Virus record (IMG/VR): IMGVR_UViG_3300009419_000013
Location: 10,138 to 74,137 of that record
Length of the DNA: 64,000 bases
Origin: a virus
Direction: 5' to 3' (one strand)
The notes beneath the pieces are model-generated. The model was not told where the DNA came from, made no database searches, and was given only the letters and a program-made list of their open reading frames with translations. Positions 10,084 through 48,364 of the stretch are shown one piece after another; within the stretch, counting starts at the first letter, position 1, and every line of letters begins with the position of its first letter. Position numbers and translations under genes: made by a program.

Positions 10084-10761
10084 TTGTCAAATACAGAAAA
10101 CCAAAACGTAGATAATTTCGATGGAGGATCTGCAGCATCCTCTGGACCAATCGAATTTATAGGTGGTTCGTCAGAATTTGCTACTGATCCTCTGGGTGGT
10201 GCTACCGCGGGATTTAATACATTATATACTAATATTGCTCTTACTTATCCTGATATTGATAGAGTAAAGGCAACATTTGAAAGATTTAATGATCCAAGTG
10301 AGATTAGATTTATAAAGGAAGCTCTCACTGTAACGAAGCAGTCACAGACCTTAAATAAGCTGGAATTGGTTGATTTCTTTCACCCTCTGCAAAATTTTTC
10401 GGAGTATCAGAAACAAAGTATGATAATAGGTCCAAGATCATCAGTCAATATAGATGCTGGATCTTTCTATGGCACCACGGGCGAGGTTTCAATGTTTATC
10501 GCTAAGGCAAATTATCTTCCCGAGGCTGGGGATAATGATAGAATTTTATTTTGGGACTATAAGGCTAATGCCAGAAATATTATGGGAAGCATAATGATTT
10601 TGACCGGTGCGGTAAAAAATGGTTCACAATGGAGAGGATGGGACATGGATCCATTTTCAACATATGGACATACTGGGGATGCTAATAGTTCCCAAGGAGG
10701 TTTTATATTCACTAATCCAACGGATTATAGTGTTAACCTAACAGTAATAGCAGCTAATTAA
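10084..10761 (+). CDS. Putative virion structural protein, paralogue A
   Basis: C-terminal domain similar to the next ORF (MG..MIL.G, GW, GG..F.NP). Confidence 0.55.
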   Translation: MSNTENQNVDNFDGGSAASSGPIEFIGGSSEFATDPLGGATAGFNTLYTNIALTYPDIDRVKATFERFNDPSEIRFIKEALTVTKQSQTLNKLELVDFFHPLQNFSEYQKQSMIIGPRSSVNIDAGSFYGTTGEVSMFIAKANYLPEAGDNDRILFWDYKANARNIMGSIMILTGAVKNGSQWRGWDMDPFSTYGHTGDANSSQGGFIFTNPTDYSVNLTVIAAN

Positions 10762-11308: not shown

Positions 11309-11330
11309 AACTGTAAAAAAAAATTTAACC

Positions 11331-13502
11331 ATGGACTTCATAAACCAAGTAAAAAAATTAAAAGAAGTAACTAAATCACCTGAGGTTAGAACTCTATGTG
11401 AAAGTTTTCTTAGCGGAGGATCAGTTTCGGAGAGCGATCTAGTTAAATCTATTAATGAACATAATATAACTCCAGACTTCGTATCTAACACACAAAATCA
11501 TTTAGATATGATAAGAAAAGAGGAGGCAGAACTTTCTAAAAAGAATGCTGCAGCTCTTATGGAATCTTGGGGTGGTTTGAAAAATGCATCTTTAAACAAT
11601 GCAGGATCATACATCTCTAGAAAAGAAGAGAAAGAAGATAGATCACTTTTAGAAAGCTTATCACAATTAGAGGGAAGTAATTTAGATTCTACTGCTAAAT
11701 CATTTATCAAATCACAAGAGGTAAATAATTTAGGAATAAGATTAGCATTAAATTCTATTAAAGAATCTTCAATTTATAGCTATCCAAAAGCTAAAATTAT
11801 GGTTGAACAATATAGTAATCTTTTGGAAAATAAAGGAGTCCCTGAATTTTCTTTGGTTCATAATTTTCTAAATGATATTAAATCTTTATCTTGGGATAAA
11901 GACGTAGCTCAAGTTGCTGAATCTGTTAAGGAGAAATCTGAATCATTGAGCAGAGAAATAGAGGTAGCTAAAGTTTTAGAGGCTTTAAAGAACAGCGGTA
12001 ACTCTTCATTCTATTCTGAATTAAACGAAACCTTGAATGATTGGTTGGTATCTGAAGAAAAATCTAATGGCCTACTTGTTAGAAATATTTCGAAATGGAA
12101 TTTCAATCCGATGGTTAGAGGATTAATAAACTATCTTAATGTTAATGAAACTGAAGATAAAAGAAAATTAGAAATTCCTGAAATGATACAGGGAGAATCT
12201 AGTGTATCGAGAGTATACTCTCCAGTTTTATTAGAAAATGGTAGATCCCTATTTTACCTAGGTGGATTCATATTTGAGGCTAATGAAGACGGTTTAAGAA
12301 AAATATCAGATAAAGAAATATCATCATTGCCACAGGAATATCTTTCATTAGTTTATACCTATGGTAAAAAACATGTTAGAGTTAATGAAAATGGAATCTT
12401 TATTAAATTAGGAAAAAGCATAGTTAGACTGGTTGAAGAAAATGACGAGGTAACTGCTTATATGGGAAAAACTAGATTGAAATTTAGTGATCCTAGTGGT
12501 CTTGCTAAAATTGTTGGATTGGAATCAGGGTCTTATTTCGGAGTTAATGAATCTGATGTAGTTAATGACATAATGAATCTTTATACTAATTACAGTAACA
12601 TCGTAGAATTAGACTTTGCTAAAAGTTTAACATCTAATGTATATGAAGGAGTTGGAGTTAATTTATTCAAATGGATGGATCAAATTTATCTTCAGAAGAT
12701 AAATGATTCAATGAATGAGAATTCAATACATAAAGTAACTGGAACACAAGCAGTTTCGGTTGTTAAAAATTATCTTAGATATGACATCTCTGAAGGTTTA
12801 ACAGAATTTTTAGAAGGTGAAAGTAAGGTTAAATCTGTTATGATCAACGATAGAGAGAAAGTTATTTCAAACATATCTAAAGTTGATGAAGAATTAAATA
12901 AAATAAATACACTAATAGGATCAAGCCCACTATACGGTGAATCAGATCAGATTAAAGCAGCTAAAAAAATGCTTGAATCCGAACTTGTTATGCTAAGAGA
13001 AAAGTGGAACCAAATAAATCTTGAAATTGAAAAGATAGATCTTGATATTAACATAAGTGGAAGCTTAGATTTATTCGAGGATGAAAAATTTAATATCGGT
13101 TCTTACATAAAGGTTAAGGAGTCTGGGGAGACTGGAAAAATTATATCTATGGATGGTACATCAGGAAGATATACAGTATTACTAGACAACGGTAAGACAT
13201 CTGACTTTTTAATAAATGAAATTAGTGATCTTGAGGAAGCATTATCTCAGGCAGCTGAAAAGAATGCTGAATCGTCTGACGAAGATGGTGAGGAAGAGGT
13301 TAAAGAATCTAATAATCTTAATAAATCAGATCTTTCAATAGAGGAGCAAAAAAATATACTAAAGAATTTTGCTAATATGCACGGATTTACTAAAGCACCT
13401 AAAGGTGAAACGGAAGAAAAAATAGAACTAGGCTTAGATAGCTTACACGGTTACAATATTTCGATGAATGAAGAATCTAGTGAAGATTTAAAAAAAAAGT
13501 AA
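11331..13502 (+). CDS. Large putative prohead core / internal head protein
   Basis: Glu-rich with many (I/L/M/V)-x-E sites (INE, LME, LLE, VNE, MNE); KOW/SH3-like segment FNIGSYIKVK..GKII; late box upstream. Confidence 0.5.
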   Translation: MDFINQVKKLKEVTKSPEVRTLCESFLSGGSVSESDLVKSINEHNITPDFVSNTQNHLDMIRKEEAELSKKNAAALMESWGGLKNASLNNAGSYISRKEEKEDRSLLESLSQLEGSNLDSTAKSFIKSQEVNNLGIRLALNSIKESSIYSYPKAKIMVEQYSNLLENKGVPEFSLVHNFLNDIKSLSWDKDVAQVAESVKEKSESLSREIEVAKVLEALKNSGNSSFYSELNETLNDWLVSEEKSNGLLVRNISKWNFNPMVRGLINYLNVNETEDKRKLEIPEMIQGESSVSRVYSPVLLENGRSLFYLGGFIFEANEDGLRKISDKEISSLPQEYLSLVYTYGKKHVRVNENGIFIKLGKSIVRLVEENDEVTAYMGKTRLKFSDPSGLAKIVGLESGSYFGVNESDVVNDIMNLYTNYSNIVELDFAKSLTSNVYEGVGVNLFKWMDQIYLQKINDSMNENSIHKVTGTQAVSVVKNYLRYDISEGLTEFLEGESKVKSVMINDREKVISNISKVDEELNKINTLIGSSPLYGESDQIKAAKKMLESELVMLREKWNQINLEIEKIDLDINISGSLDLFEDEKFNIGSYIKVKESGETGKIISMDGTSGRYTVLLDNGKTSDFLINEISDLEEALSQAAEKNAESSDEDGEEEVKESNNLNKSDLSIEEQKNILKNFANMHGFTKAPKGETEEKIELGLDSLHGYNISMNEESSEDLKKK

Positions 13503-13654
13503 GCCGTAACTTTTATTTTGCTCCTAAGGGGGAAAATCAGAATAAACCAGGCGAGACTTTTGTTCAATCTTCTGATGGTAAATTAAGTAAAGCTCCCGAT
13601 GGCAAAGAAATAGAATCCTCCGACGAAGACGAGGAGGAAGAGGATAAGGAATAA
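13499..13654 (+). CDS. -1 frame C-terminal extension (51 aa) of the 11331 ORF
   Basis: After TTA AAA AAA AAG TAA the -1 frame reads VSRNFYFAPKGENQNKPGETFVQSSDGKLSKAPDGKEIESSDEDEEEEDKE* and ends at the terminator. Confidence 0.55.
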   Translation, partial: VSRNFYFAPKGENQNKPGETFVQSSDGKLSKAPDGKEIESSDEDEEEEDKE

Positions 13655-13688
13655 AAAGAATGTAGCTCATGAGCTACATTCTTTTTTT
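13653..13688 (+). terminator. Intrinsic terminator
   Basis: aaaaagaatgtagctc-at-gagctacattcttttt perfect inverted repeat plus T-tract. Confidence 0.85.
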
Positions 13689-13743: not shown

Positions 13744-14103
13744 ATGGCTAAAGAATATGTTAAAAACAGCGAGCTTTTAGCAGCTGTAATAGAATCTAAA
13801 AGTAAGGGTCAACTTACACCCGATACAATAGATATGTTTATGTTAATGATAAACGGAATATCTAAAAAAATGTCATATAAGGATCCGGAGGATAAAGAGG
13901 ATTGTATGGCATTTGCAATGGAGGATCTTTGTAAATATTGGAATAGATTTAATCCTGAAAAATCAAATAATCCATTTGCTTATTATACACAGATAGCTAA
14001 AAATGGATTTGCTAAGGGATGGAAAAAAATACATCCTCCGAAAAATCCTAAAACAATACCTTTTAGCTATATAACGGGTGAGGATAATTCGTATAACGTT
14101 TAA
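13744..14103 (+). CDS. gp55: Late-transcription sigma factor (T4 gp55-like)
   Basis: YVKNSELL and KYWNRFNPEKSNNPFAYYTQIAKN, the gp55 family signature. Confidence 0.85.
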   Translation: MAKEYVKNSELLAAVIESKSKGQLTPDTIDMFMLMINGISKKMSYKDPEDKEDCMAFAMEDLCKYWNRFNPEKSNNPFAYYTQIAKNGFAKGWKKIHPPKNPKTIPFSYITGEDNSYNV

Positions 14104-14109
14104 TCTATT

Positions 14110-14595
14110 ATGGTAGATATAAAGAAAGTAAAACCTAACGGTGATCACAAATCTGGAAAATATGCACCAAGAAATCCGGATAAGTATATAGGTGATATAC
14201 ATAATATCATCTATAGATCTTCATGGGAATATAGATTCTGTATCTACTGCGATACTAATGATTCTATATTAAAATGGAGTTCAGAGCCAGTTGCTATAGA
14301 TTATTATAATCCTCTCGATAAAAAAGATCATAAGTATAATGTAGATTTCTATATAAAGGTGCAAAGGGAGGATCAAACCGAGCAGGACTGGATAATAGAA
14401 ATAAAACCCGAAAACCAGACAAAGAAACCTATATATGAAGGTGTTAATACATTAGCAAAACTTAAATCATACAATAGAAATATGCAGATTTGGATAACAA
14501 ATCAAGCAAAATTTAAAGCTGCTAAATTATGGGCAGAGAAGAGGGGATATAAATTCGGAGTTGTTGATGAGAATTTTTTATTTAAAAGTAAATAA
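14110..14595 (+). CDS. gp4: Head completion nuclease (T4 gp4-like)
   Basis: GKY.P.NPDKYIGD, YRSSWE, KWSSE, IEIKP..QT, NQAKFKAA. Confidence 0.9.
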   Translation: MVDIKKVKPNGDHKSGKYAPRNPDKYIGDIHNIIYRSSWEYRFCIYCDTNDSILKWSSEPVAIDYYNPLDKKDHKYNVDFYIKVQREDQTEQDWIIEIKPENQTKKPIYEGVNTLAKLKSYNRNMQIWITNQAKFKAAKLWAEKRGYKFGVVDENFLFKSK

Positions 14596-15234: not shown

Positions 15235-16833
15235 ATGGCAGGTTTTGTAGATAATAATGATCCTTCTCAAACTCCGGTAATACAGAGAATTAGAGATTCT
15301 GTAAGAAAAATTAGTTCATTTGGTATGAAATACGATGACATGGTCATTCGTAATTCACAGGCTGTTGGTGTTACTGAGGCTGCTTTTCTTAATAAGAATA
15401 AGTCCAATGTCGAGGACGAAAGCATGCTATGGACCTTAGCTAAGCAGGATATATCATCCAGACAATTTATAGGATATTTTGATAAGGACTATAAGGGAAA
15501 GAGAGACTATCTTAGAAAATTCTCATTAAATCCTGAAGTTGAATGGGTTCTTGATACCATATGTGACGAGGCAATATCTTATGATCCATCGAATTTCTTT
15601 GCTTATCCTGATTTCATAGATCTTAGCGACGTTAATGAAAAAATAAAGGAAGATTTATATGACTCTTATAAAAAACTTTATGATGTTTGGGGATTTTCCG
15701 ATGATATAACAGCTTGGCAATATTTCAGACAATTTATAATAGATGGATTTCTTGCATTTGAGATAATCTATGATAATAAGGGTGATAATATAATCGGATT
15801 TAAGGAATTGGATCCAATTACACTTATACCTAGTGTGGAGAAACAAATAGATGGTAGCTATCTTAGCACCTGGACACAGTATCCTCAGGATCCCAAGAGA
15901 AAAAGAGTATTATATGATCCGCAAATCATCTACATATCATATGCTAAGGGTAATAGCATATCAAGAATTAGCTACATAGAAAGATTAATAAGACCTTATA
16001 ATATTCTAAGAATTATAGAATATACTAGGGTTATATGGTCGGTCATGAATGCATCATTTAAACTTAAGATGACCATTCCAATAGGAAGCAAATCCCAACA
16101 GAAGGGTATGCAAACTTTGGGTGAGTTAATGAGTATCTATAAGGAAGATATTCAGCTGAATGATGATAGTGGTGAACTTACTGTGGATGGTAGACCTAAA
16201 ATACAATTCTATAAGAATTATCTGATGCCTTCAGGTGTTAATGGTACACCAACTATAGAACCTATAAATACTGAGGGTCCTAATCTTAATGATCCTCAGC
16301 CTTTATCATACTTCTTTGACAAGTACATCCTTGAATCTAAAGTTCCACCATCCAGATTTCATAATCCTGATGGCGGAACAACTTCGCCATATTCAAATGG
16401 TGCGGAAGGACTTGATAAGGAGGAAATTAGATTTGCTAAATTTATATCTAGACTTAGATCGGTATTTCAGGAGATATTACTAAAACCTTTATGGATACAG
16501 ATGGTCAAGAAACATAAATCACTTGATGAGGATTTTATGTTTAAGAGTCAGCTTGGATTAGATTACGTTTCTGATAACCCATTCAAATTAAATCAGGAGA
16601 TGGATTTAATAAATAAAAGGAAGGAAGCAGTCGTTGCAATGACCGGATTAATGGGGGATGAGGAAAAACCATATTTCTCTAGCGCATTTCTTATAGAGAC
16701 TTTTCTTGGAATATCTAAACAGGATATCGATGCTAATAAAGAGGCATTAGAAAGAAAAGAGAAGGAGAAGAAAAAAGAGGAAGGTAAAAAAGAAGAGGGT
16801 GGAGAAGAGGAAGCTCCAGAAGTAACACTATAA
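15235..16833 (+). CDS. gp20: Portal protein, paralogue 1 (T4 gp20-like)
   Basis: PEVE..LD.I.DEAI, FRQF.IDG, LDP, SYIERLIRPYN.LR..E, KVP.SRF, EEIRFAKFI.RLR..F. Confidence 0.88.
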   Translation: MAGFVDNNDPSQTPVIQRIRDSVRKISSFGMKYDDMVIRNSQAVGVTEAAFLNKNKSNVEDESMLWTLAKQDISSRQFIGYFDKDYKGKRDYLRKFSLNPEVEWVLDTICDEAISYDPSNFFAYPDFIDLSDVNEKIKEDLYDSYKKLYDVWGFSDDITAWQYFRQFIIDGFLAFEIIYDNKGDNIIGFKELDPITLIPSVEKQIDGSYLSTWTQYPQDPKRKRVLYDPQIIYISYAKGNSISRISYIERLIRPYNILRIIEYTRVIWSVMNASFKLKMTIPIGSKSQQKGMQTLGELMSIYKEDIQLNDDSGELTVDGRPKIQFYKNYLMPSGVNGTPTIEPINTEGPNLNDPQPLSYFFDKYILESKVPPSRFHNPDGGTTSPYSNGAEGLDKEEIRFAKFISRLRSVFQEILLKPLWIQMVKKHKSLDEDFMFKSQLGLDYVSDNPFKLNQEMDLINKRKEAVVAMTGLMGDEEKPYFSSAFLIETFLGISKQDIDANKEALERKEKEKKKEEGKKEEGGEEEAPEVTL

Positions 16834-16837
16834 TAAG

Positions 16838-18454
16838 ATGGCAGGATTTTTAGACTTTTTAAAACCGAATCAATCAGCTTTAGGTAATATACTAAAGAAT
16901 CTTGGAAACATATCAAAATTTGGTATGCAGTACGATGATATGGTTGTAAAAAATTCTCAGGCTATTGGTAAGACTGAGGGATTTTTCTATAATCAGGATG
17001 GTAATGGGTTTACACAGAATGATGCTTTCTATTGGACATCATCGTATCAAGACACCAAGGTAAGAAAATATATTGCATATTTTGACCGTGATTATATCGA
17101 GAAGAGGAATTACCTTAGAAAATTTTCACTTAACGGTGAGATAGAGTTTATATTAGATACTATAACTGATGAAGCAATAGTGTATGATGATAGAAATTAT
17201 TTTGCTCAGCCATCGTTTATAAATCTTGATCTTAAGGATAAGGTAAAAGATAAGATCTCGGAGCATTACAATAAGATCTATAATGTATTTGGATTTCAGA
17301 ACACAATACTTGGGTGGCAATATTTTAAACAGTTTCTAATTGATGGATTTCTTGCATTTGAAATAATATATGATAGCAAGGGAAAAAATGTGATTGGATT
17401 TAAAGAATTGGACCCAACCTCTCTTCAGCCTATAGTAGAAAAGATTGGTGAGGAAGAACATAAACAATTCTGGATTCAGTATCCAAAAAACCCACAAATG
17501 ACCAGAAAGCTAACTAATGAGCAGGTCATTTATATTTCATATGCTAAGGGAAATATGATAACTAGAGTTAGTTATGTAGAAAGACTAGTTAGGTCATATA
17601 ATATTCTTAGAATAATGGAGAATTCTAGAATTATATGGAACGTAATGAATTCGTCATATAGATTGAAATTTATTATACCTATTGGTACACAGTCTCAACA
17701 AAAAGCAATGCAGAATCTTGGTCAGTTAATGTCGAATTATAAGGAGGATATTAATATAAATGATTCTTCTGGAGAATTAACAATAAACGGTAAACCCAAA
17801 ATTCAATTCTATAAGAATTATTTATTTCCTGAAAAGGACGGTCAGAGTCCTCAGATAGAATCACTTAATCCTAGTGGACCTGATTTTAATGTTATGGAGA
17901 ATGTGGTTTATTTCTTCAATAAGCTTAAAATGGATTCAAAAATACCTTATGCTAGATTTGCATCCAGAAATAGTACACCAGGTAATTATCAGACAAGCAT
18001 AGATCAATTGGAAAGAGATGAAATTAGATTTGAAAAATTTCTGAGAAGACTTAGATCAATTTTCCAAGAGATATTAACTAAGCCTCTTTATATACAGATG
18101 TGTCTTGATAATCCCGAATTATCAAGGGATAAGAACTTTAAAGCAAATATAGGTCTTAATTACAATAGAGACAGCGAATTCGAGGAAATGGTTGAAATGA
18201 GTAATTACACTAAGAGAACTGAATTTATAACTGGACTTGGCGAACTTAAGGTTAAGATAGGCGAGGAGGAGAAGGGATATTTCGATAAGAACTTTTTAAT
18301 ACAAAGATTTCTTGGTATGAACCCGGATCAAATAAGAATGAATGAAAAGTATAAGGAAGCTGAAGCAAAACTAGCTGAAAAAGCAGGCGGTGAAGCACCA
18401 CCTGAAGGAGAAGCACCAGCTGAAGGCGAGGAAGCACCTGAGGTAACCCTATAA
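16838..18454 (+). CDS. gp20: Portal protein, paralogue 2 (T4 gp20-like)
   Basis: Colinear with paralogue 1; RDEIRFEKFLRRLRSIFQEIL; same EEAPEVTL C-terminus. Confidence 0.88.
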   Translation: MAGFLDFLKPNQSALGNILKNLGNISKFGMQYDDMVVKNSQAIGKTEGFFYNQDGNGFTQNDAFYWTSSYQDTKVRKYIAYFDRDYIEKRNYLRKFSLNGEIEFILDTITDEAIVYDDRNYFAQPSFINLDLKDKVKDKISEHYNKIYNVFGFQNTILGWQYFKQFLIDGFLAFEIIYDSKGKNVIGFKELDPTSLQPIVEKIGEEEHKQFWIQYPKNPQMTRKLTNEQVIYISYAKGNMITRVSYVERLVRSYNILRIMENSRIIWNVMNSSYRLKFIIPIGTQSQQKAMQNLGQLMSNYKEDININDSSGELTINGKPKIQFYKNYLFPEKDGQSPQIESLNPSGPDFNVMENVVYFFNKLKMDSKIPYARFASRNSTPGNYQTSIDQLERDEIRFEKFLRRLRSIFQEILTKPLYIQMCLDNPELSRDKNFKANIGLNYNRDSEFEEMVEMSNYTKRTEFITGLGELKVKIGEEEKGYFDKNFLIQRFLGMNPDQIRMNEKYKEAEAKLAEKAGGEAPPEGEAPAEGEEAPEVTL

Positions 18455-30233: not shown

Positions 30234-32204
30234 ATGCCAACAACCCAAAAGCTTAATGAAGATTTAGTTTTCATCCTTGAAAGACAGGAGAGAGTACTTG
30301 AATCTAAGAAGACAGATTCGGAGGATGATTATGTTCTGGAAGGTATAGCAGCTGTTTTCGGAAAAGAAAACAATAATAATAGAATATACGAGGAAAATGA
30401 ATATTTGCCTCATTTAGACTATCTTAAAGACAAAATCGCACAGAAGAGACTGGTTGGCGAATTGGATCATCCTGAAAAATTCGACGTTTCTCTTAAGAAT
30501 ATTTCTCATATTATAGAGGATCTCGCATATGATAAGGATAAGAGAGAACTTAAAATAAAGGTTAGACTTCTTGATACACCAGCTGGTATTATAGCTAAGA
30601 AATTAGTTGATGCCGGAGTACCACTTTCAATATCATCAAGAGCAGCTGGTTCAGTTGGTAATGATAAAAAGGTTCAGATCAAGAAAATATTTACTTATGA
30701 TTTAGTTGCTGATCCTGGTTTTCAGGATGCACAATTGGAAAGAGTATATGAAAGTGCAGGATTTAGTTTCGAAGACGTTTATAAAATGAGAAACAATACA
30801 ATTTTAAACGGATTAACTTGCGTTAATGAATCTTTCGGTCTTAAAAATGAATCTTCAATGAAGATATATAAAGTTGAAAATAACGAAGAATTCAACAATC
30901 TCGTAACAAAAACAGAAAAAAATAAAGAAATCCTTATGGAGAATAAAGAATTTGTTACTGCTGATGACCTAAATCAATATTCTATTTTCTTGAAGAAAGA
31001 AATGGATTCAATGAAATCGGCTATAGCAGAAATTAACGAAAAGAGAGACTCAATTCAAGAATCTGAAAAAACATCTAATGATGATGTTGTTACAGCATTG
31101 GAAGAAAGAGTAGCTAAATTGGAAAAATATTCTGAGTACTTAGCTGAAAACTTAGATAACGCAATTAAGTATGGAGAATACGTTGCTGAAAATCTAGATC
31201 AAAACATAACATATTCTAAGTATTTAGCTGAGAATTTGGATAAAAACATTTCTTATTCTAAATATTTAGCTGAGAATGTTGATAAATCTATATCTTATTC
31301 TGAATATGTAGCGGAGAGTGTAGATAAGAATATAGAGTATTCTAAATATTTAGCTGAAAAGGTAGATCAAAATATTTCATATTCTGAATACTTAGCTGAA
31401 AATGTTGATAATAGTATTTCTTACAGCGAGCACTTAGCAGAAAACTTAAATAAAGGTATTGCTTATACTGAATACGTTGCAGAAAAATTAAACGATGGTA
31501 TCGAATATGCCGAGTATTTAGGAGAAAATCTAAATAAAAATATTCAATATTCAGACTATTTAGCTGAAAATCTAAATAAAGGTTTAGATTATTCTGAGTA
31601 TTTAGCTGAAAAAGTTAAAAGATCTATATCTTACAGTGAATATATAGCAGAAAGCTTAAATAATTCTGATATGAAATCAGTAGGACAAGATTTAATGGAA
31701 AGTGCATCAGTATCAGCATCAGCAGGTTTAAACGAATCTGGATTTGCAGGTAATTATGACAACCTTTCAGACAAAATTGATAGTTTGGTAGAATCAGTTA
31801 AAACACAAAAAACTGAATCAAATATAAACGAAGCTTCAAAATCATTTGAAGCGCCAGCCAACACACAAAAGGCACAAGAATCAGCTCTTAATGAAAACGA
31901 GAGCACAACAAAAACAGGTCTTAAGTTTATTGACGAAATGCCTGAAGAATTTGCACAAGTTTGGGAATCACTTAATGAAGGACACAAGCAATCAATCGTT
32001 GCTCAAAGTAACTTCTATAGATTAGATTCTCCTTACCAAATCAAAAACTTCTGGTCAACAAGACAACTTGGAACCAAAACAGTTGGAGTTCAAAAATTGA
32101 ACGAGAGCGAAGAAACAGTGCCAAGTGCAACAACACAAGCTTATTCAAGCGATTACATGGCTTCGATAGCTGCTGCACTAGAGCAAAAATTTCCAAAAAG
32201 ATAA
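30234..32204 (+). CDS. gp21: Prohead protease (gp21-like) fused to scaffold/core (gp22-like)
   Basis: LEGI, N.N.RIY, GELDHP, SHII, LLDTPAG, ISSRAAGSV, YDLVADP; C-terminal coiled coil with 14-aa repeats. Confidence 0.9.
   Translation: MPTTQKLNEDLVFILERQERVLESKKTDSEDDYVLEGIAAVFGKENNNNRIYEENEYLPHLDYLKDKIAQKRLVGELDHPEKFDVSLKNISHIIEDLAYDKDKRELKIKVRLLDTPAGIIAKKLVDAGVPLSISSRAAGSVGNDKKVQIKKIFTYDLVADPGFQDAQLERVYESAGFSFEDVYKMRNNTILNGLTCVNESFGLKNESSMKIYKVENNEEFNNLVTKTEKNKEILMENKEFVTADDLNQYSIFLKKEMDSMKSAIAEINEKRDSIQESEKTSNDDVVTALEERVAKLEKYSEYLAENLDNAIKYGEYVAENLDQNITYSKYLAENLDKNISYSKYLAENVDKSISYSEYVAESVDKNIEYSKYLAEKVDQNISYSEYLAENVDNSISYSEHLAENLNKGIAYTEYVAEKLNDGIEYAEYLGENLNKNIQYSDYLAENLNKGLDYSEYLAEKVKRSISYSEYIAESLNNSDMKSVGQDLMESASVSASAGLNESGFAGNYDNLSDKIDSLVESVKTQKTESNINEASKSFEAPANTQKAQESALNENESTTKTGLKFIDEMPEEFAQVWESLNEGHKQSIVAQSNFYRLDSPYQIKNFWSTRQLGTKTVGVQKLNESEETVPSATTQAYSSDYMASIAAALEQKFPKR
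31125..31670 (+). repeat. About 13 x 42-nt (14-aa, xYSEYLAENLDKNI) coding tandem repeats
   Basis: Visible in the translation of 30234..32204. Confidence 0.92.
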
Positions 32205-32220
32205 AAAATAAAAACAAATC

Positions 32221-33912
32221 ATGAAATTGATCAACGAACAAGAAATCTATGATACATGGTCTCCGATTATCGAGAGCAAAGCTGGTATCACAGAAGAAGG
32301 AAAAAAAGGATGGTTGACTAAATATTGTCATTATCATTCATTAAACGAGTCTGCAGGTGCTTATAACACTTTAGGAGTTGTTAACGGTATGGGTGCAGTT
32401 GCGCCACCAGCATACCCAGGTATGGCATCTTTCCAAGGTGGTAATGCTAACGCTGGTTTCTATAACACAGGAAATCAAGGATCTGGAGATAAATTCCCAT
32501 CATTATTGCCATTAGCTATTCAGGTAGCTGCTAAGACTGTAGGTTTTGATATCGTTCCTGTTATCCCTATGTCAGGACCAACTGGTATCTTATCTTACTT
32601 AGATTACGTATATTCAGGTGGTAAAATTGCTGGTGCTACATCTGCTACTTCAGGAGATTCATTAGCTAAAGCTCCTACAATGATTAAATTCCCAGTTGCA
32701 CAAGGATCTTCTGCAGGTCTTACTGGTGCTACTGCTGGAACATTCGCAGTAGGTACTGTTTACACAGTTACTAATGGAGGTGTATTAACACTTAAATTCG
32801 TAGGTTTATCAAGAATCGATGGTTTCCCAATCTTCGAAATCGAAAACATTACTGATGGTTACAATGTTGCTGGTATTATTACAGCTTCAGGAAGTTTCAA
32901 CGTTGCTACTTCTACAATGTTTACTGCAGGTTCTGCACAATTAGTTAAAGCTTTAGAAGATCATATCCAAGGATTCTCTGGTGCTGGTTTCAACAACACC
33001 GCTGACTGGCAAGGTCCTTACGTAGATGGTACTAAAACTTACAACCCTATGTTAAGAGGAGTTGGTGAGTCTACTTACTACAACTCAATGGGTCTTTCTA
33101 CTTTCACTAAATTCGTGGAGGCTGAAACTTTCCAAGTTGCTGCTTCAGTTACAACTGAGCAAATCCAAGATCTTAACAAACAATTCGGTATCGACGTTAT
33201 CTCAATGATCGAGAACGCATTGGTTAATGAGGTTTCTCAAGCAATTAACAAACACATCTTATCAAGAGCATTCGCTTTAGGTTGGTCTAACCATAACCAA
33301 TTCTTCAATGTTGAAAACCAAAACCTTAACTTGAACTTAGTTCTTGGTGGTGGTGCTGGTACAACTTTAGCTTATGTTAACAAATCAGATGCTACACAAT
33401 CTATGCCTATCCCAGCTGGACCAGCTACAGGAGGTTACGAGAACTTATCAACTTTACAAAGAAGATTATTCTCAAGAATCCTTGCAGGTGCTAACGTGGT
33501 AGCTAATAGAGGTAGAAGAGGTCCTGCTAACTTCGTAGTAACGAATGCAGCAGTTGCAAGTGCACTTCAAGATATTTCTCAATTCACTTTCGCTCCATTC
33601 TCTAATACACTTACTCAAAATAACGGTACTTTATACCCTGTAGGTTCTCTTGCTGGTATGACAGTTTACGTAGATCAGAATATGAACTATAGCGATACAA
33701 GAGTATTAATTGGTAGAAAAGGTGGTGATGATGAACCAGGATTAAAATTCATGCCTTACATGATGGCAGAATCGATTCAGACTATCTCTGAAGGTACAAT
33801 GTCACCTAAAATCGCGGTTAAATCTAGATACGCTTTAGTAGAAGCTGGTTTCTTACCTGAAACTATGTACTTAACATTATTCGTTAACGTACCTGCTGGT
33901 GGTTTAGCATAA
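32221..33912 (+). CDS. gp23: Major capsid protein (T4 gp23-like)
   Basis: V.PMSGPTG, T.EQIQDL, L.NEV...IN, RGRRGPANFVV, G.LAG.TVYVD, FMPY, KSRYAL; strongly biased codons. Confidence 0.93.
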   Translation: MKLINEQEIYDTWSPIIESKAGITEEGKKGWLTKYCHYHSLNESAGAYNTLGVVNGMGAVAPPAYPGMASFQGGNANAGFYNTGNQGSGDKFPSLLPLAIQVAAKTVGFDIVPVIPMSGPTGILSYLDYVYSGGKIAGATSATSGDSLAKAPTMIKFPVAQGSSAGLTGATAGTFAVGTVYTVTNGGVLTLKFVGLSRIDGFPIFEIENITDGYNVAGIITASGSFNVATSTMFTAGSAQLVKALEDHIQGFSGAGFNNTADWQGPYVDGTKTYNPMLRGVGESTYYNSMGLSTFTKFVEAETFQVAASVTTEQIQDLNKQFGIDVISMIENALVNEVSQAINKHILSRAFALGWSNHNQFFNVENQNLNLNLVLGGGAGTTLAYVNKSDATQSMPIPAGPATGGYENLSTLQRRLFSRILAGANVVANRGRRGPANFVVTNAAVASALQDISQFTFAPFSNTLTQNNGTLYPVGSLAGMTVYVDQNMNYSDTRVLIGRKGGDDEPGLKFMPYMMAESIQTISEGTMSPKIAVKSRYALVEAGFLPETMYLTLFVNVPAGGLA

Positions 33913-45855: not shown

Positions 45856-46152
45856 ATGAGTGCTAATAGAAGAGAGAGAAGAAAGTTATTGAGACAGTAT
45901 GGTCTTTTAGATACGATTAAAAAGACATCGGTTGGATCCAGAATTGAGGAAGGTCAGAATACACATAGATTAAATTTACAGAGAATCAAGAATGATCAAT
46001 TAAAAAAAGATAGGGAAAGAATGGGTAATTCTGACACTACCGAGAATATTAATTTTTATCATGATAGCAAGGATGAATATAGTGCATTTACTTCGATGCT
46101 TTCTTCCAAGAATTGGGAAAATTTAGATACTGGAGAGAAAGATGGAGAGTAA
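45856..46152 (+). CDS. Hypothetical basic protein
   Basis: 98-aa ORF, NRRERRK. Confidence 0.6.
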   Translation: MSANRRERRKLLRQYGLLDTIKKTSVGSRIEEGQNTHRLNLQRIKNDQLKKDRERMGNSDTTENINFYHDSKDEYSAFTSMLSSKNWENLDTGEKDGE

Positions 46153-46471
46153 AATGAAGATAAATTTCTATATATCTAGATATTCTCCCAAGGAAGCTAA
46201 AAAAAGATCGACATACGGATCTGATTTTTATGTTGTTGATATAGCAAAGATAATAAGAGAACTTGGATATAGTACGGATGAACTTTCAGTAGAATCCGAA
46301 TTTATCATAAATTACACTATTCGCAAGAAAATAATACAAGGAATATATAGTACAAAGTGTGACGGTATACTTGTATGCTATAAGAATATATCTCCCGATT
46401 TTGTAGAAAATTTGGAGATCCTATTAGATGAATATTCAGAAGAATTCGAGTATGCTATCACAGATCTTTAA
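46142..46471 (+). CDS. Hypothetical protein
   Basis: 109-aa ORF. Confidence 0.55.
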   Translation: MESKMKINFYISRYSPKEAKKRSTYGSDFYVVDIAKIIRELGYSTDELSVESEFIINYTIRKKIIQGIYSTKCDGILVCYKNISPDFVENLEILLDEYSEEFEYAITDL

Positions 46472-46492
46472 AAAAAAAGATTTGTATAGTAA

Positions 46493-48364
46493 ATGGGTAG
46501 CCCAGCAAATTTAGTAGAAAAACAACAGAGAGGTATATCAAAGGACCTCATAGAGAAAGCAAGTAATCTTGGATCCAATAATCCTTTTAAGGGTCCAACT
46601 GCGAGAAGTTTATTCTATGAAGCTGCAAAAAGAAATCCTGGAAAATATGGACAATTCCTGTTCTATTCTTTAGGCAGTAACGAGAATGATTTCATAGATG
46701 CATATTATAGATCGGAAAATGCCCAATATAACAGAAGGGTATCCTCATTAAAATCTAAAAATCCATCAGCTGGATATTTAATATCACAAACCAATAGTTT
46801 AGAAAATTCATTAGCCAGTGCAGATTCAACTTTAGCTGGATTAAGCTCCAGCTTTGAGAGAGATATAGTGGGTGGATTAGCAGCTCCTTATTCATGGAAG
46901 GATTTTTTATATGCTAAGCATTATGGTACTATACCTAATAATTATATGATAACTTTGAGAAGGTTTCCGACTCCAGTTCTGGATAATTTCTCAATACCTG
47001 CTATTGTTAAGGATTCAGATTCGTATAAAAAAGAGGGTGCAGGAAGACCTGTTGCACAGGCGGTAACATGGTTTGGCGGTAATACAGGTAATGCTCTAGG
47101 TGAGCTTATTTCATTTACTACTGGGCTAGAATGGACTCCTAAAACGCAGGAAAGTATAAAGGAAAGTAAATCTACGAGTAATGGATTTTTTGGAGATCTT
47201 CCATTCCAGTGGTTTTCGTCAGCTGCTAGAACTGCAACAGGAACTGATATATTAGCGAATGGGGTATCTTCTTTTGCAGAGGGTGCCGCAATTGCATTCG
47301 ATCCAAATAATACTTCAATAGACGATCTTAGGGTTAGAGGACTTAGAGACAGAGCAAAGGACGGATCAGCTGGGCTTCTATCCGAATACATTTGGGTTCC
47401 CTTGGATGTAGTTAAACAAACACAGGTAAGGGATGAGGGTCTTAAATTCACTTGGGAATCCCTGGTTGTTAATTTTGAATATGAATTAACTTCAGTGGGT
47501 GAGGTTAATACAAAGGCAGCAATGCTTGATATATTAGGTAACATGCTATCAATAGGAACAAATTATGGTAATTTTTTAACCCCTGATATAAGATATAATT
47601 CACAATTCCCAGCAATAGGGTTTCCTGGTGGAGATGCTGGTCTTGCATCATTCTATAGGGACCCACTACAATTTGTAATTGAATATGGCGATCAGTTAAC
47701 TAATCCTACAAAAATAGCTACTGAAGCTGCTGGTGGTGCAACAGAAACTGGCGGATTTGGCTTGAATGGCGCAAATGGAAATAGTATGAATGATCTGAGA
47801 TCTGAATTTGAAAGAATAGTCGGAGATGGTACTGATGCTAATAAGGGTGAAAAATTAACGGTTAGTAAGCTGAAGGAGCTCTCTGCCAAATTTGGATCAG
47901 GTTTCGGTAAATTACTTAAATTAACAGTTTTACCTGATTTTATAGAAAAATGGCAGGCACCTGCTAGTTTACTTACCGGTGCACCTATAGGCGAATGGCA
48001 TTTAACTATAGGTAATCCATGTAATCCTATAGCAATGATCGGAAATCTTGTTTGTGACAGTGTTGATATATCTTTTGGTGATACATTAGGACCTGATGAT
48101 TTTCCAACTACTCTAAAAGCAAAATTTACTTTGCTACATGGTAGAGATAGGGAGCGAGGTGAGATAGAGAGTATATTTAATAGGGGTGATGGTAGACTTT
48201 ATCAATCCAGCTTGGAAACATCGGCATCCGCTCAATCTTATAATTCACAAGCTGATGTTAATGGTAATCCTCTTAGCGAACAAACCATTAATAGATATTT
48301 GAATATGAATTCATATACCACCGAATTGACAGATCAGCTAGGCCCTAATATACCTCAACCTTAA
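46493..48364 (+). CDS. Baseplate / tube-initiator-like structural protein (gp48-like)
   Basis: First gene of the baseplate module; tube-fold-like C-terminus (LTIGNP..IGNLVC..V.I.F...GPDDFPT.LKA.FTL). Confidence 0.5.
   Translation: MGSPANLVEKQQRGISKDLIEKASNLGSNNPFKGPTARSLFYEAAKRNPGKYGQFLFYSLGSNENDFIDAYYRSENAQYNRRVSSLKSKNPSAGYLISQTNSLENSLASADSTLAGLSSSFERDIVGGLAAPYSWKDFLYAKHYGTIPNNYMITLRRFPTPVLDNFSIPAIVKDSDSYKKEGAGRPVAQAVTWFGGNTGNALGELISFTTGLEWTPKTQESIKESKSTSNGFFGDLPFQWFSSAARTATGTDILANGVSSFAEGAAIAFDPNNTSIDDLRVRGLRDRAKDGSAGLLSEYIWVPLDVVKQTQVRDEGLKFTWESLVVNFEYELTSVGEVNTKAAMLDILGNMLSIGTNYGNFLTPDIRYNSQFPAIGFPGGDAGLASFYRDPLQFVIEYGDQLTNPTKIATEAAGGATETGGFGLNGANGNSMNDLRSEFERIVGDGTDANKGEKLTVSKLKELSAKFGSGFGKLLKLTVLPDFIEKWQAPASLLTGAPIGEWHLTIGNPCNPIAMIGNLVCDSVDISFGDTLGPDDFPTTLKAKFTLLHGRDRERGEIESIFNRGDGRLYQSSLETSASAQSYNSQADVNGNPLSEQTINRYLNMNSYTTELTDQLGPNIPQP

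Follow-up and report, generated by a model that had tools for sequence, protein, structure and literature searches.

The capsid protein of phage T7 (10A/10B) and the tail chaperone of phage lambda (G/GT) are structural gene products made as short and C-terminally extended forms, at a fixed ratio, through ribosomal shifts. Reading frame can also change during transcription: bacterial RNA polymerase (RNAP) is reported to slip efficiently on nine A's or T's, and such slippage on a 9-nt homopolymer in dnaX of Thermus thermophilus is described as giving about half of the product in another form, while 25–30% of the product of Shigella spa13 is extended by slippage (PMC5009743). Programmed transcriptional slippage is well documented in insertion sequence (IS) elements and in a few bacterial genes, and deeply conserved cases outside mobile elements are rare. 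Here we describe a candidate site of this kind at the 3' end of a gene in a huge T4-related phage, located on 64,000 nt of viral DNA (positions 10,138 to 74,137 of the IMG/VR record IMGVR_UViG_3300009419_000013, itself a 74-kb fragment); this whole stretch is called the window below. The gene closes on a run of nine A's (A9), beyond which the -1 frame stays open for 51 codons. By analogy, the site appears to resemble either productive transcriptional slippage, as in Thermus dnaX, spa13 and tssM, or an unstimulated -1 frameshift of the IS1 type.

Our analyses indicate that recoding of some kind almost certainly occurs at this site, and that the one gene very probably yields both a short and a long isoform. 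The ratio of the isoforms and the identity of the slipping machine are matters that we infer, and transcriptional slippage on A9 is favoured, with moderate confidence, over its rival, -1 ribosomal frameshifting. A first-pass annotation made from the sequence alone had proposed two isoforms through one or other of these mechanisms; its description of the locus was correct and its interpretation is partly supported.

The slippery site and its conserved tail

The main open reading frame (ORF) of the gene occupies 11331..13502 on the + strand and its 3' end reads GAT TTA AAA AAA AAG TAA; standard decoding of A9-G-TAA would produce the short isoform, a predicted protein of 723 aa ending in …DLKKK. 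The A9 run (13490..13498, + strand) is the candidate slippery site. With the G at 13499 it holds the 0-frame heptamer A AAA AAG, and it is directly after this site that the 0-frame stop TAA (13500..13502, + strand) ends the short isoform. The -1 frame extension (13499..13654, + strand) consists of 51 codons, with no ATG, GTG or TTG among them, and a TAA stop at 13652-13654. Translated in the -1 frame from 13499 it is VSRNFYFAPKGENQNKPGETFVQSSDGKLSKAPDGKEIESSDEDEEEEDKE, that is, a conserved tail SRNFYFAPK…GKLSKAPDGK followed by an acidic end. Upstream, the -1 frame is closed by a TGA read from the sequence at 13481..13483 (+ strand), so the two frames overlap only at 13484-13499, 16 nt that include the A-run, and a single added A would join the 723-aa ORF to the 51-codon frame. 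The tail would be made only if RNAP or the ribosome slips at the A-run.

Three nucleotides past the extension stop begins a hairpin resembling an intrinsic terminator (13658..13688, + strand), with a 10-bp stem (13658-13667 paired to 13672-13681), a CATG loop and seven T's at 13682-13688. A palindrome scanner reports the same hairpin but assigns it to the minus strand, since it lets the flanking A5 pair with the T's. Direct reading therefore bears out what the first-pass annotation had said of the ORF end, the A9, the TAA and the startless 51-codon frame, as well as its statement that the extension stops at a terminator; the echoes that it had noticed are also real, with FAPKGE, SKAPDG and SSDEDEEEE in the extension recalling TKAPKGE and SSDEDGEEE upstream.

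The arrangement extends across a family of proteins. A search at E<=0.001 returned 303 relatives; the figures given here rest on the best 120 of the 303, which range from 98% to 53% identity. Among the query and these 120 proteins, 108 of 121 have a C-terminal KK[NK], three carry SRNFYF in frame, and ten have another or a truncated end. Of the 121 database entries examined, gene callers have truncated 108, missing one of the best conserved parts of the protein. We examined 76 loci at the nucleotide level, comprising the window, 52 further IMG/VR loci and 23 metagenome contigs; since the same contig sometimes occurs in both collections, counts of distinct sequences are given as well. Ten loci are cut by the contig end before the 3' end of the gene is reached, and the other 66 represent 41 distinct sequences. 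The A-run and then the tail, SRNFYFAPK…SKAPxGK with an acidic end, are present in all 66. A conserved 9A run within a conserved ORF overlap has been set out as a criterion for the functional use of slippage (Baranov et al. 2005; PMC1088944); in this family the run is A9 in 39 of the 41 distinct sequences and A10 in two.

Three gene layouts are found. A shift is needed to reach the tail in 36 of the 41 distinct sequences (56 loci), the tail always lying in the -1 frame, and here the combination of A-run and stop that the first-pass annotation proposed to look for in relatives was present. Of the 0-frame stops in these 36, 34 are TAA and two are TAG, and 33 are separated from the run by a single nucleotide; immediately 3' of the run stands C in 30, G in three, and T or others in the rest. 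Four distinct relatives have the tail fused in frame and retain A9, in the context TCA or GGA, AAA AAA AAC, CCC or CCT, AGT. The first-pass annotation had taken a continuous ORF in relatives as a refutation of recoding, an argument that is not valid here, these four being continuous yet keeping the run. In the last distinct sequence (loci L006, L007 and L014), the main ORF ends earlier, the A9 is in frame, and the tail forms an independent 75-aa ORF that has an ATG. In relatives, the frame of the tail is open for just 5–16 codons before the tail. Complete relatives of the locus measure 290–434 kb, and the family is one of huge T4-related phages in which the gene is conserved. No additional copy of the tail was found in four complete relatives, each of which has it once per genome, and no longer protein carrying the 50-aa tail was found at E<=0.01, which is weak evidence given so short a query.

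Substitution patterns point to a tail that is translated and under coding constraint. Over its first 35 codons in 30 distinct sequences, the variable columns at codon positions 1, 2 and 3 of the tail frame number 20, 17 and 35 of 35, and pairwise codon differences divide into 5536 synonymous and 3795 non-synonymous, against 713/8744 and 536/8589 in the other two frames. Stops interrupt the tail frame in none of the 30 sequences and the other two frames in 27 and 30 of them. The same signal is visible over a shorter distance in a strain represented by five IMG/VR records (L001-L005, identical to one another across this region), with DNA that is 7% divergent from the window and an identical A9-G-TAA. 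This strain differs from the window at 151 positions in the gene, 133 of them synonymous, and between the 0-frame stop and an indel further on there are 14 differences, 13 of them at third positions of the -1 frame. Twelve residues are invariant among 35 distinct tails (N3, F4, Y5, F6, G17, F20, G26, K30, A31, P32, G34 and K35), and mean column identity is 68% in the tail versus 45% in the whole protein, which places the tail among the best conserved parts of the protein. Family conservation and this coding signature together lend strong comparative support to the original suggestion of two isoforms.

The A-run also seems to be selected as a nucleotide sequence. Its two Lys codons and the wobble A of the preceding codon (TTA, GTA, TCA or GGA) never vary; elsewhere, across the central domain of the protein in 31 sequences, none of six conserved Lys columns is all AAA and the third base is kept in none of 21 invariant Leu, Val, Ser, Gly, Ala, Thr, Pro or Arg columns. 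A single A9 is not unusual as such, the 64 kb containing three versus about seven by a rough first-order expectation, and the run at 13490-13498 is the only one within the 57 coding ORFs of the window. When these ORFs were compared with 500 synonymous shuffles, runs of at least seven A's were not depleted (40 observed, 38.9 expected, 313 of 500 shuffles at or below), in contrast to runs of at least eight (6 versus 14.8 ± 2.8, 0 of 500 at or below) and at least nine (1 versus 5.4 ± 1.9, 4 of 500). Many bacterial genomes are reported to select against such runs at a length of nine (PMC1088944). Conservation of A9 across the family is far beyond chance, and the genome appears to select against long A-runs elsewhere in coding sequence.

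A complete relative of 373 kb contains just 12 A9/T9 runs, most of them in leaders or intergenic, and the A9 of the recoding site alone joins a long frame to a downstream frame. The only other clear A9 within an ORF in that genome (L095 1501-1509; G001:C1:353239-353247) lies in frame in a 369-aa ORF with the N-terminus MKKYDFLIVGAGLFGS…, which may encode a flavin-dependent enzyme, for instance UDP-galactopyranose mutase.

Polymerase or ribosome

We propose that bacterial RNAP would realign on the nine A's and add one untemplated A to part of the mRNAs. While standard decoding continues to supply the short form, ordinary translation of the A10 mRNAs would read into the -1 frame tail, and a fixed minority of products would gain the 50-residue C-terminal tail and so become a long isoform of about 774 aa. 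Ribosomes slipping by -1 without a stimulator, on A AAA AAG or A AAA AAC, may make some of it too, so that both mechanisms may contribute. Transcriptional slippage is favoured because the run length is kept, the base after the run is variable, stimulators were not found, A8+ runs are depleted, and the literature described above documents slippage on runs of this length. Two positions beyond the 7-nt heptamer there is always an A, and the codon phase of the A-run differs in one relative (L010). The dnaX-type heptamer A AAA AAG named in the first-pass annotation is indeed found in the window, but AAG is not the conserved feature of the family, because, among the 36 distinct sequences that need a shift, 30 have C after the run and just three have G. 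What is conserved, judging by the alignments, is the length of nine, which takes in A's beyond the heptamer and persists in sequences that need no shift.

Signals of the kind that stimulate ribosomal frameshifting were sought on both sides of the run. A consensus RNA structure calculated with RNAalifold for 29 sequences, from -60 to +90, contains no pairs, and single-sequence folds give just weak, non-homologous hairpins that start at least 17 nt past the run; no conserved motif resembling a Shine-Dalgarno (SD) sequence is present in the 60 nt upstream. SD-like 4-mers occur at six of 58 gene starts in the window, where leaders are A-rich and G-poor. Leaders of this composition and without SD are typical of Bacteroidota-type initiation, and suggest a Bacteroidota-like host with SD-independent initiation, in line with the Lak-phage and Tenacibaculum-phage affinities described below.

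The alternative that the long isoform comes mainly from -1 programmed ribosomal frameshifting, by tandem or P-site slip on A AAA AAG (A AAA AAC in relatives) without stimulatory RNA, and perhaps with help from ribosomes that terminate slowly at the neighbouring stop or slide along poly(A), is in our view rather unlikely, although much that is seen at the site agrees with it. The window and every relative that needs a shift have the heptamer correctly phased, the shift is always -1, the 0-frame stop follows the site directly in 33 of 36 distinct sequences, and the product with C after the run, …KKN-LSRNFYF, would match the KKN[LP]SRNFYF of in-frame relatives; the A AAA AAC of IS1 is, moreover, described as working without an established stimulator (PMC4066793). 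Yet the family has no conserved stem-loop or pseudoknot and no SD-like element in the regions searched, and the genome hardly uses SD. The Z base of the heptamer varies whereas the A-run, also where it extends past the heptamer, keeps its length; A7 runs, which can hold the heptamer, are not avoided in coding sequence whereas A8+ runs are; and A9 is kept where no shift is needed. Several points nonetheless weigh against transcriptional slippage. The heptamer A AAA AAG is a strong site for -1 shifts in bacteria, and since both the AAG and the AAC heptamer can shift, ribosomal frameshifting is possible in every lineage, A AAA AAC being given as a proven shift site in IS1 with no known stimulator (PMC4066793). 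Slippage of the polymerase does not call for a stop so strictly placed, a single nucleotide beyond the run (33 of 36), and this placement could reflect an effect at the level of the ribosome, and avoidance of A8+ runs could stem from DNA replication slippage instead. Polymerases of AT-rich hosts may slip less on A9 (PMC1088944), and contigs of the sole RNA run with the gene (X20) cover 13023-13281, outside the A9 run.

Phase variation at the DNA level, in which the A-tract would change length during replication to give a mixture of A9 (short) and A10 (long) genomes, has in its favour the hypermutability of homopolymer tracts and the A10 found in two of 41 distinct sequences. It is nevertheless highly improbable, for both A10 lineages still need a -1 shift, a change in run length puts none of the 36 distinct shift-needing sequences in frame, the in-frame clade differs outside the run, and the contigs of three DNA runs show no indel, though contigs hide minor variants. 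We give as little credence to translation of the tail alone, by reinitiation after the TAA or from a non-canonical start, unfused to the 723-aa protein. The clade of L006, L007 and L014, with its separate 75-aa ORF and own ATG, does imply that the tail may act as a free peptide; against this, the window and the 36 distinct shift-needing sequences have no ATG, GTG or TTG in a frame that opens only 5–16 codons upstream, and four distinct relatives carry the tail fused in frame. Homopolymers are error-prone in some sequencing chemistries, but an error of sequencing or assembly, or a recent frameshift mutation followed by an untranslated, decaying remnant, is scarcely credible for an arrangement common to 56 loci (36 distinct) from many assemblies, in which purifying selection on the tail continued after the lineages split. 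DNA contigs from another study (X2) and another sample (X3), the two spans being 12900-13618 and 12900-13682, have no gaps; the A10 misread as A9 that the first-pass annotation had contemplated is not borne out by these two other runs, which cross the A-run gap-free.

Transcriptional slippage as proposed here would share with Thermus dnaX a 9-nt A/T run within the gene, heterogeneous mRNAs, a common N-terminus and differing C-termini (PMC5009743). The in-frame clade reproduces that layout, with A9 kept, the long form obtained by standard decoding and a stop soon reached in the shifted frame. The protein is unrelated to dnaX, however, and polarity is reversed in the window and most relatives, where standard decoding gives the short form and the putative slip the long one. 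Shigella flexneri spa13 and mxiE and Citrobacter rodentium tssM are similar in having a homopolymer in a disrupted ORF, a C-terminal extension that is required for function being restored by a minority of transcripts (PMC5009743, PMC4256274), but they are bacterial secretion-system genes, whereas this is a phage gene with three layouts and a conservation that spans proteins down to about 53% identity (best 120 of 303). IS elements provide the precedent of an A-run in a short ORF overlap that leads to -1 frame fusion, through A AAA AAC in IS1 or through 9A slippage (PMC4066793, PMC1088944); the present gene is not a mobile element, and its downstream frame is a 50-residue tail with no catalytic domain. 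The window resembles Escherichia coli dnaX in its in-phase A AAA AAG, its nearby stop and its two predicted C-terminal variants. That signal is defined by two stimulators, an SD-like element ahead of the heptamer and a stem-loop or pseudoknot 5–9 nt behind it. As neither was found when looked for, the site is not of the E. coli dnaX type; the G is not conserved in the family, and in E. coli it is the short product that results from the shift. T7 10A/10B and lambda G/GT are likewise cases of phage recoding near the 3' end of a gene, although here the run length points to the polymerase.

It may be that a clade of huge T4-related phages sets an isoform ratio through slippage of the host RNAP on A9, with the tail as a separable docking module and three layouts toggled while the tract is always kept; we consider the case for this broader reading to be evenly balanced. 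The layouts would then be slip-to-extend in most lineages, in-frame slip-to-truncate in the clade with a peptidoglycan-binding insert, and the tail as a separate small gene, and we give the same even weighting to this assignment. Toggling of this kind has a parallel in the alternative dnaX solutions of bacteria. If true, the gene would be the first in tailed phages, mobile elements aside, for which transcriptional slippage is deeply conserved, as far as the literature searched shows; no paper joining huge or jumbo phages with frameshifting or slippage was found in it, which is limited evidence for novelty. The evolutionary case consists of 41 distinct sequences, three layouts and an invariant homopolymer amid freely varying synonymous sites. 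The site is also a natural system in which to tell slippage by the polymerase from slippage by the ribosome, since in relatives where C follows the run the predicted junction peptide depends on which of them slips, and the 50-residue tail is a likely functional handle on an unannotated, conserved protein of huge phages.

The protein and its genomic setting

An AlphaFold2 model of the whole protein (pLDDT 67.6) comprises a helical N-terminal part (residues 1-273), a beta-rich domain at about 291-470, a coiled-coil hairpin (497-576), a small SH3-like barrel (592-633) and a disordered acidic C-terminal region; the central beta-rich domain modelled alone reaches pLDDT 89.8. Past the barrel, the disordered acidic region holds a variable number of 'h-x-x-A-P-x-G … GYN' repeats, and the tail contains the last two AP motifs. 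Pfam and PHROGs have no family for the 723-aa protein of the window. PF20297 (MSSS, MutS2 and Smr-associated SH3 domain) matches the barrel in 23 of 36 aligned relatives at E<=0.01, the best at 1.3e-5 and 25.2 bits against a cut-off of 26.8, below which both members with scores shown fall; there is no PF20297 match in the window's own protein. Neither the whole model nor the central domain had a Foldseek match in PDB at E<=0.001. The VIA wide search returned just coiled-coil hairpins (Z 10–11, residues 495-582) and, for the central domain, a best Z of 6.3, which is not informative. A profile search of PDB sequences gave one match at E 0.22, the ESM Atlas nothing above lead level, and the best viral matches in BFVD are uncharacterised Myoviridae proteins, among them one of Tenacibaculum phage PTm1. 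The label 'head protein' used in the first-pass annotation is thus left without support, the fold matches being confined to coiled coil or chance level and no Pfam or PHROGs family applying. The recognisable head genes of the window lie elsewhere, with the portals at 15235-18454, the protease at 30234-32204 and the major head protein at 32221-33912.

One sub-clade (P0040 and P0052; L011-L015, L057-L059 and L006/7/14) has one or two PG_binding_1 domains inserted at about residues 120-172, in an N-terminal disordered loop, and is the same sub-clade that shows the in-frame or split tail layout. A search for cultured-phage relatives gave no DNA match and a single distant protein match, in LR756500.1 (24% identity). 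This homologue of 617 aa stops after the barrel, without the tail or a terminal A-run. Directly upstream of it is a 411-aa ORF (L056 742-1977) with a C-terminal CxxC…CxC pattern, a putative TnpB/IS605 OrfB-type protein.

The window comes from a T4-related phage, and its genes all lie on the + strand. The gene at 11331..13502 is followed by one for a gp55-like late sigma factor (13744-14103, + strand); a late sigma gene also comes next in 45 of the 52 IMG/VR loci and after the tail-less LR756500.1 homologue. Downstream are a head-completion/TnsA-like protein (14110-14595, + strand) and two tandem T4-type portal genes (15235-16833 and 16838-18454, + strand; PF07230 at 3.5e-57 and 2e-69, phrog_213); a tailed phage with adjacent portal paralogues is unusual. 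Within the phage collection, the portals are closest to those of uncultured phages of 462–735 kb (LR7565xx, LR745206) and of Prevotella Lak phages. Tandem tail-tube-like paralogues (1864-2418 and 2435-3010, + strand; phrog_32623 and weaker tail tube families) come directly after the tail sheath gene, and a second sigma-factor-like gene is found at 6596-7228 (+ strand; phrog_1740, 1.3e-17). Other recognisable genes encode DNA ligase, clamp loader, prohead protease, major head protein, tail sheath, tail tube and baseplate proteins. The T4 late-promoter motif TATAAATA is not enriched in the window (18 versus 16.6 expected) and is absent upstream of the gene, and the window contains no Rfam family and no tRNA.

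Two further A9 runs occur in the window. One, at 11315-11323, lies 7 nt upstream of the ATG, in the leader of the 723-aa ORF, and is kept in the 373-kb relative (L085); it could be part of an A-rich initiation region or a site of reiterative transcription. The other, at 46470-46478, starts inside the TAA of the ORF at 46142-46471 and lies in the spacer before the ORF at 46493-48364.

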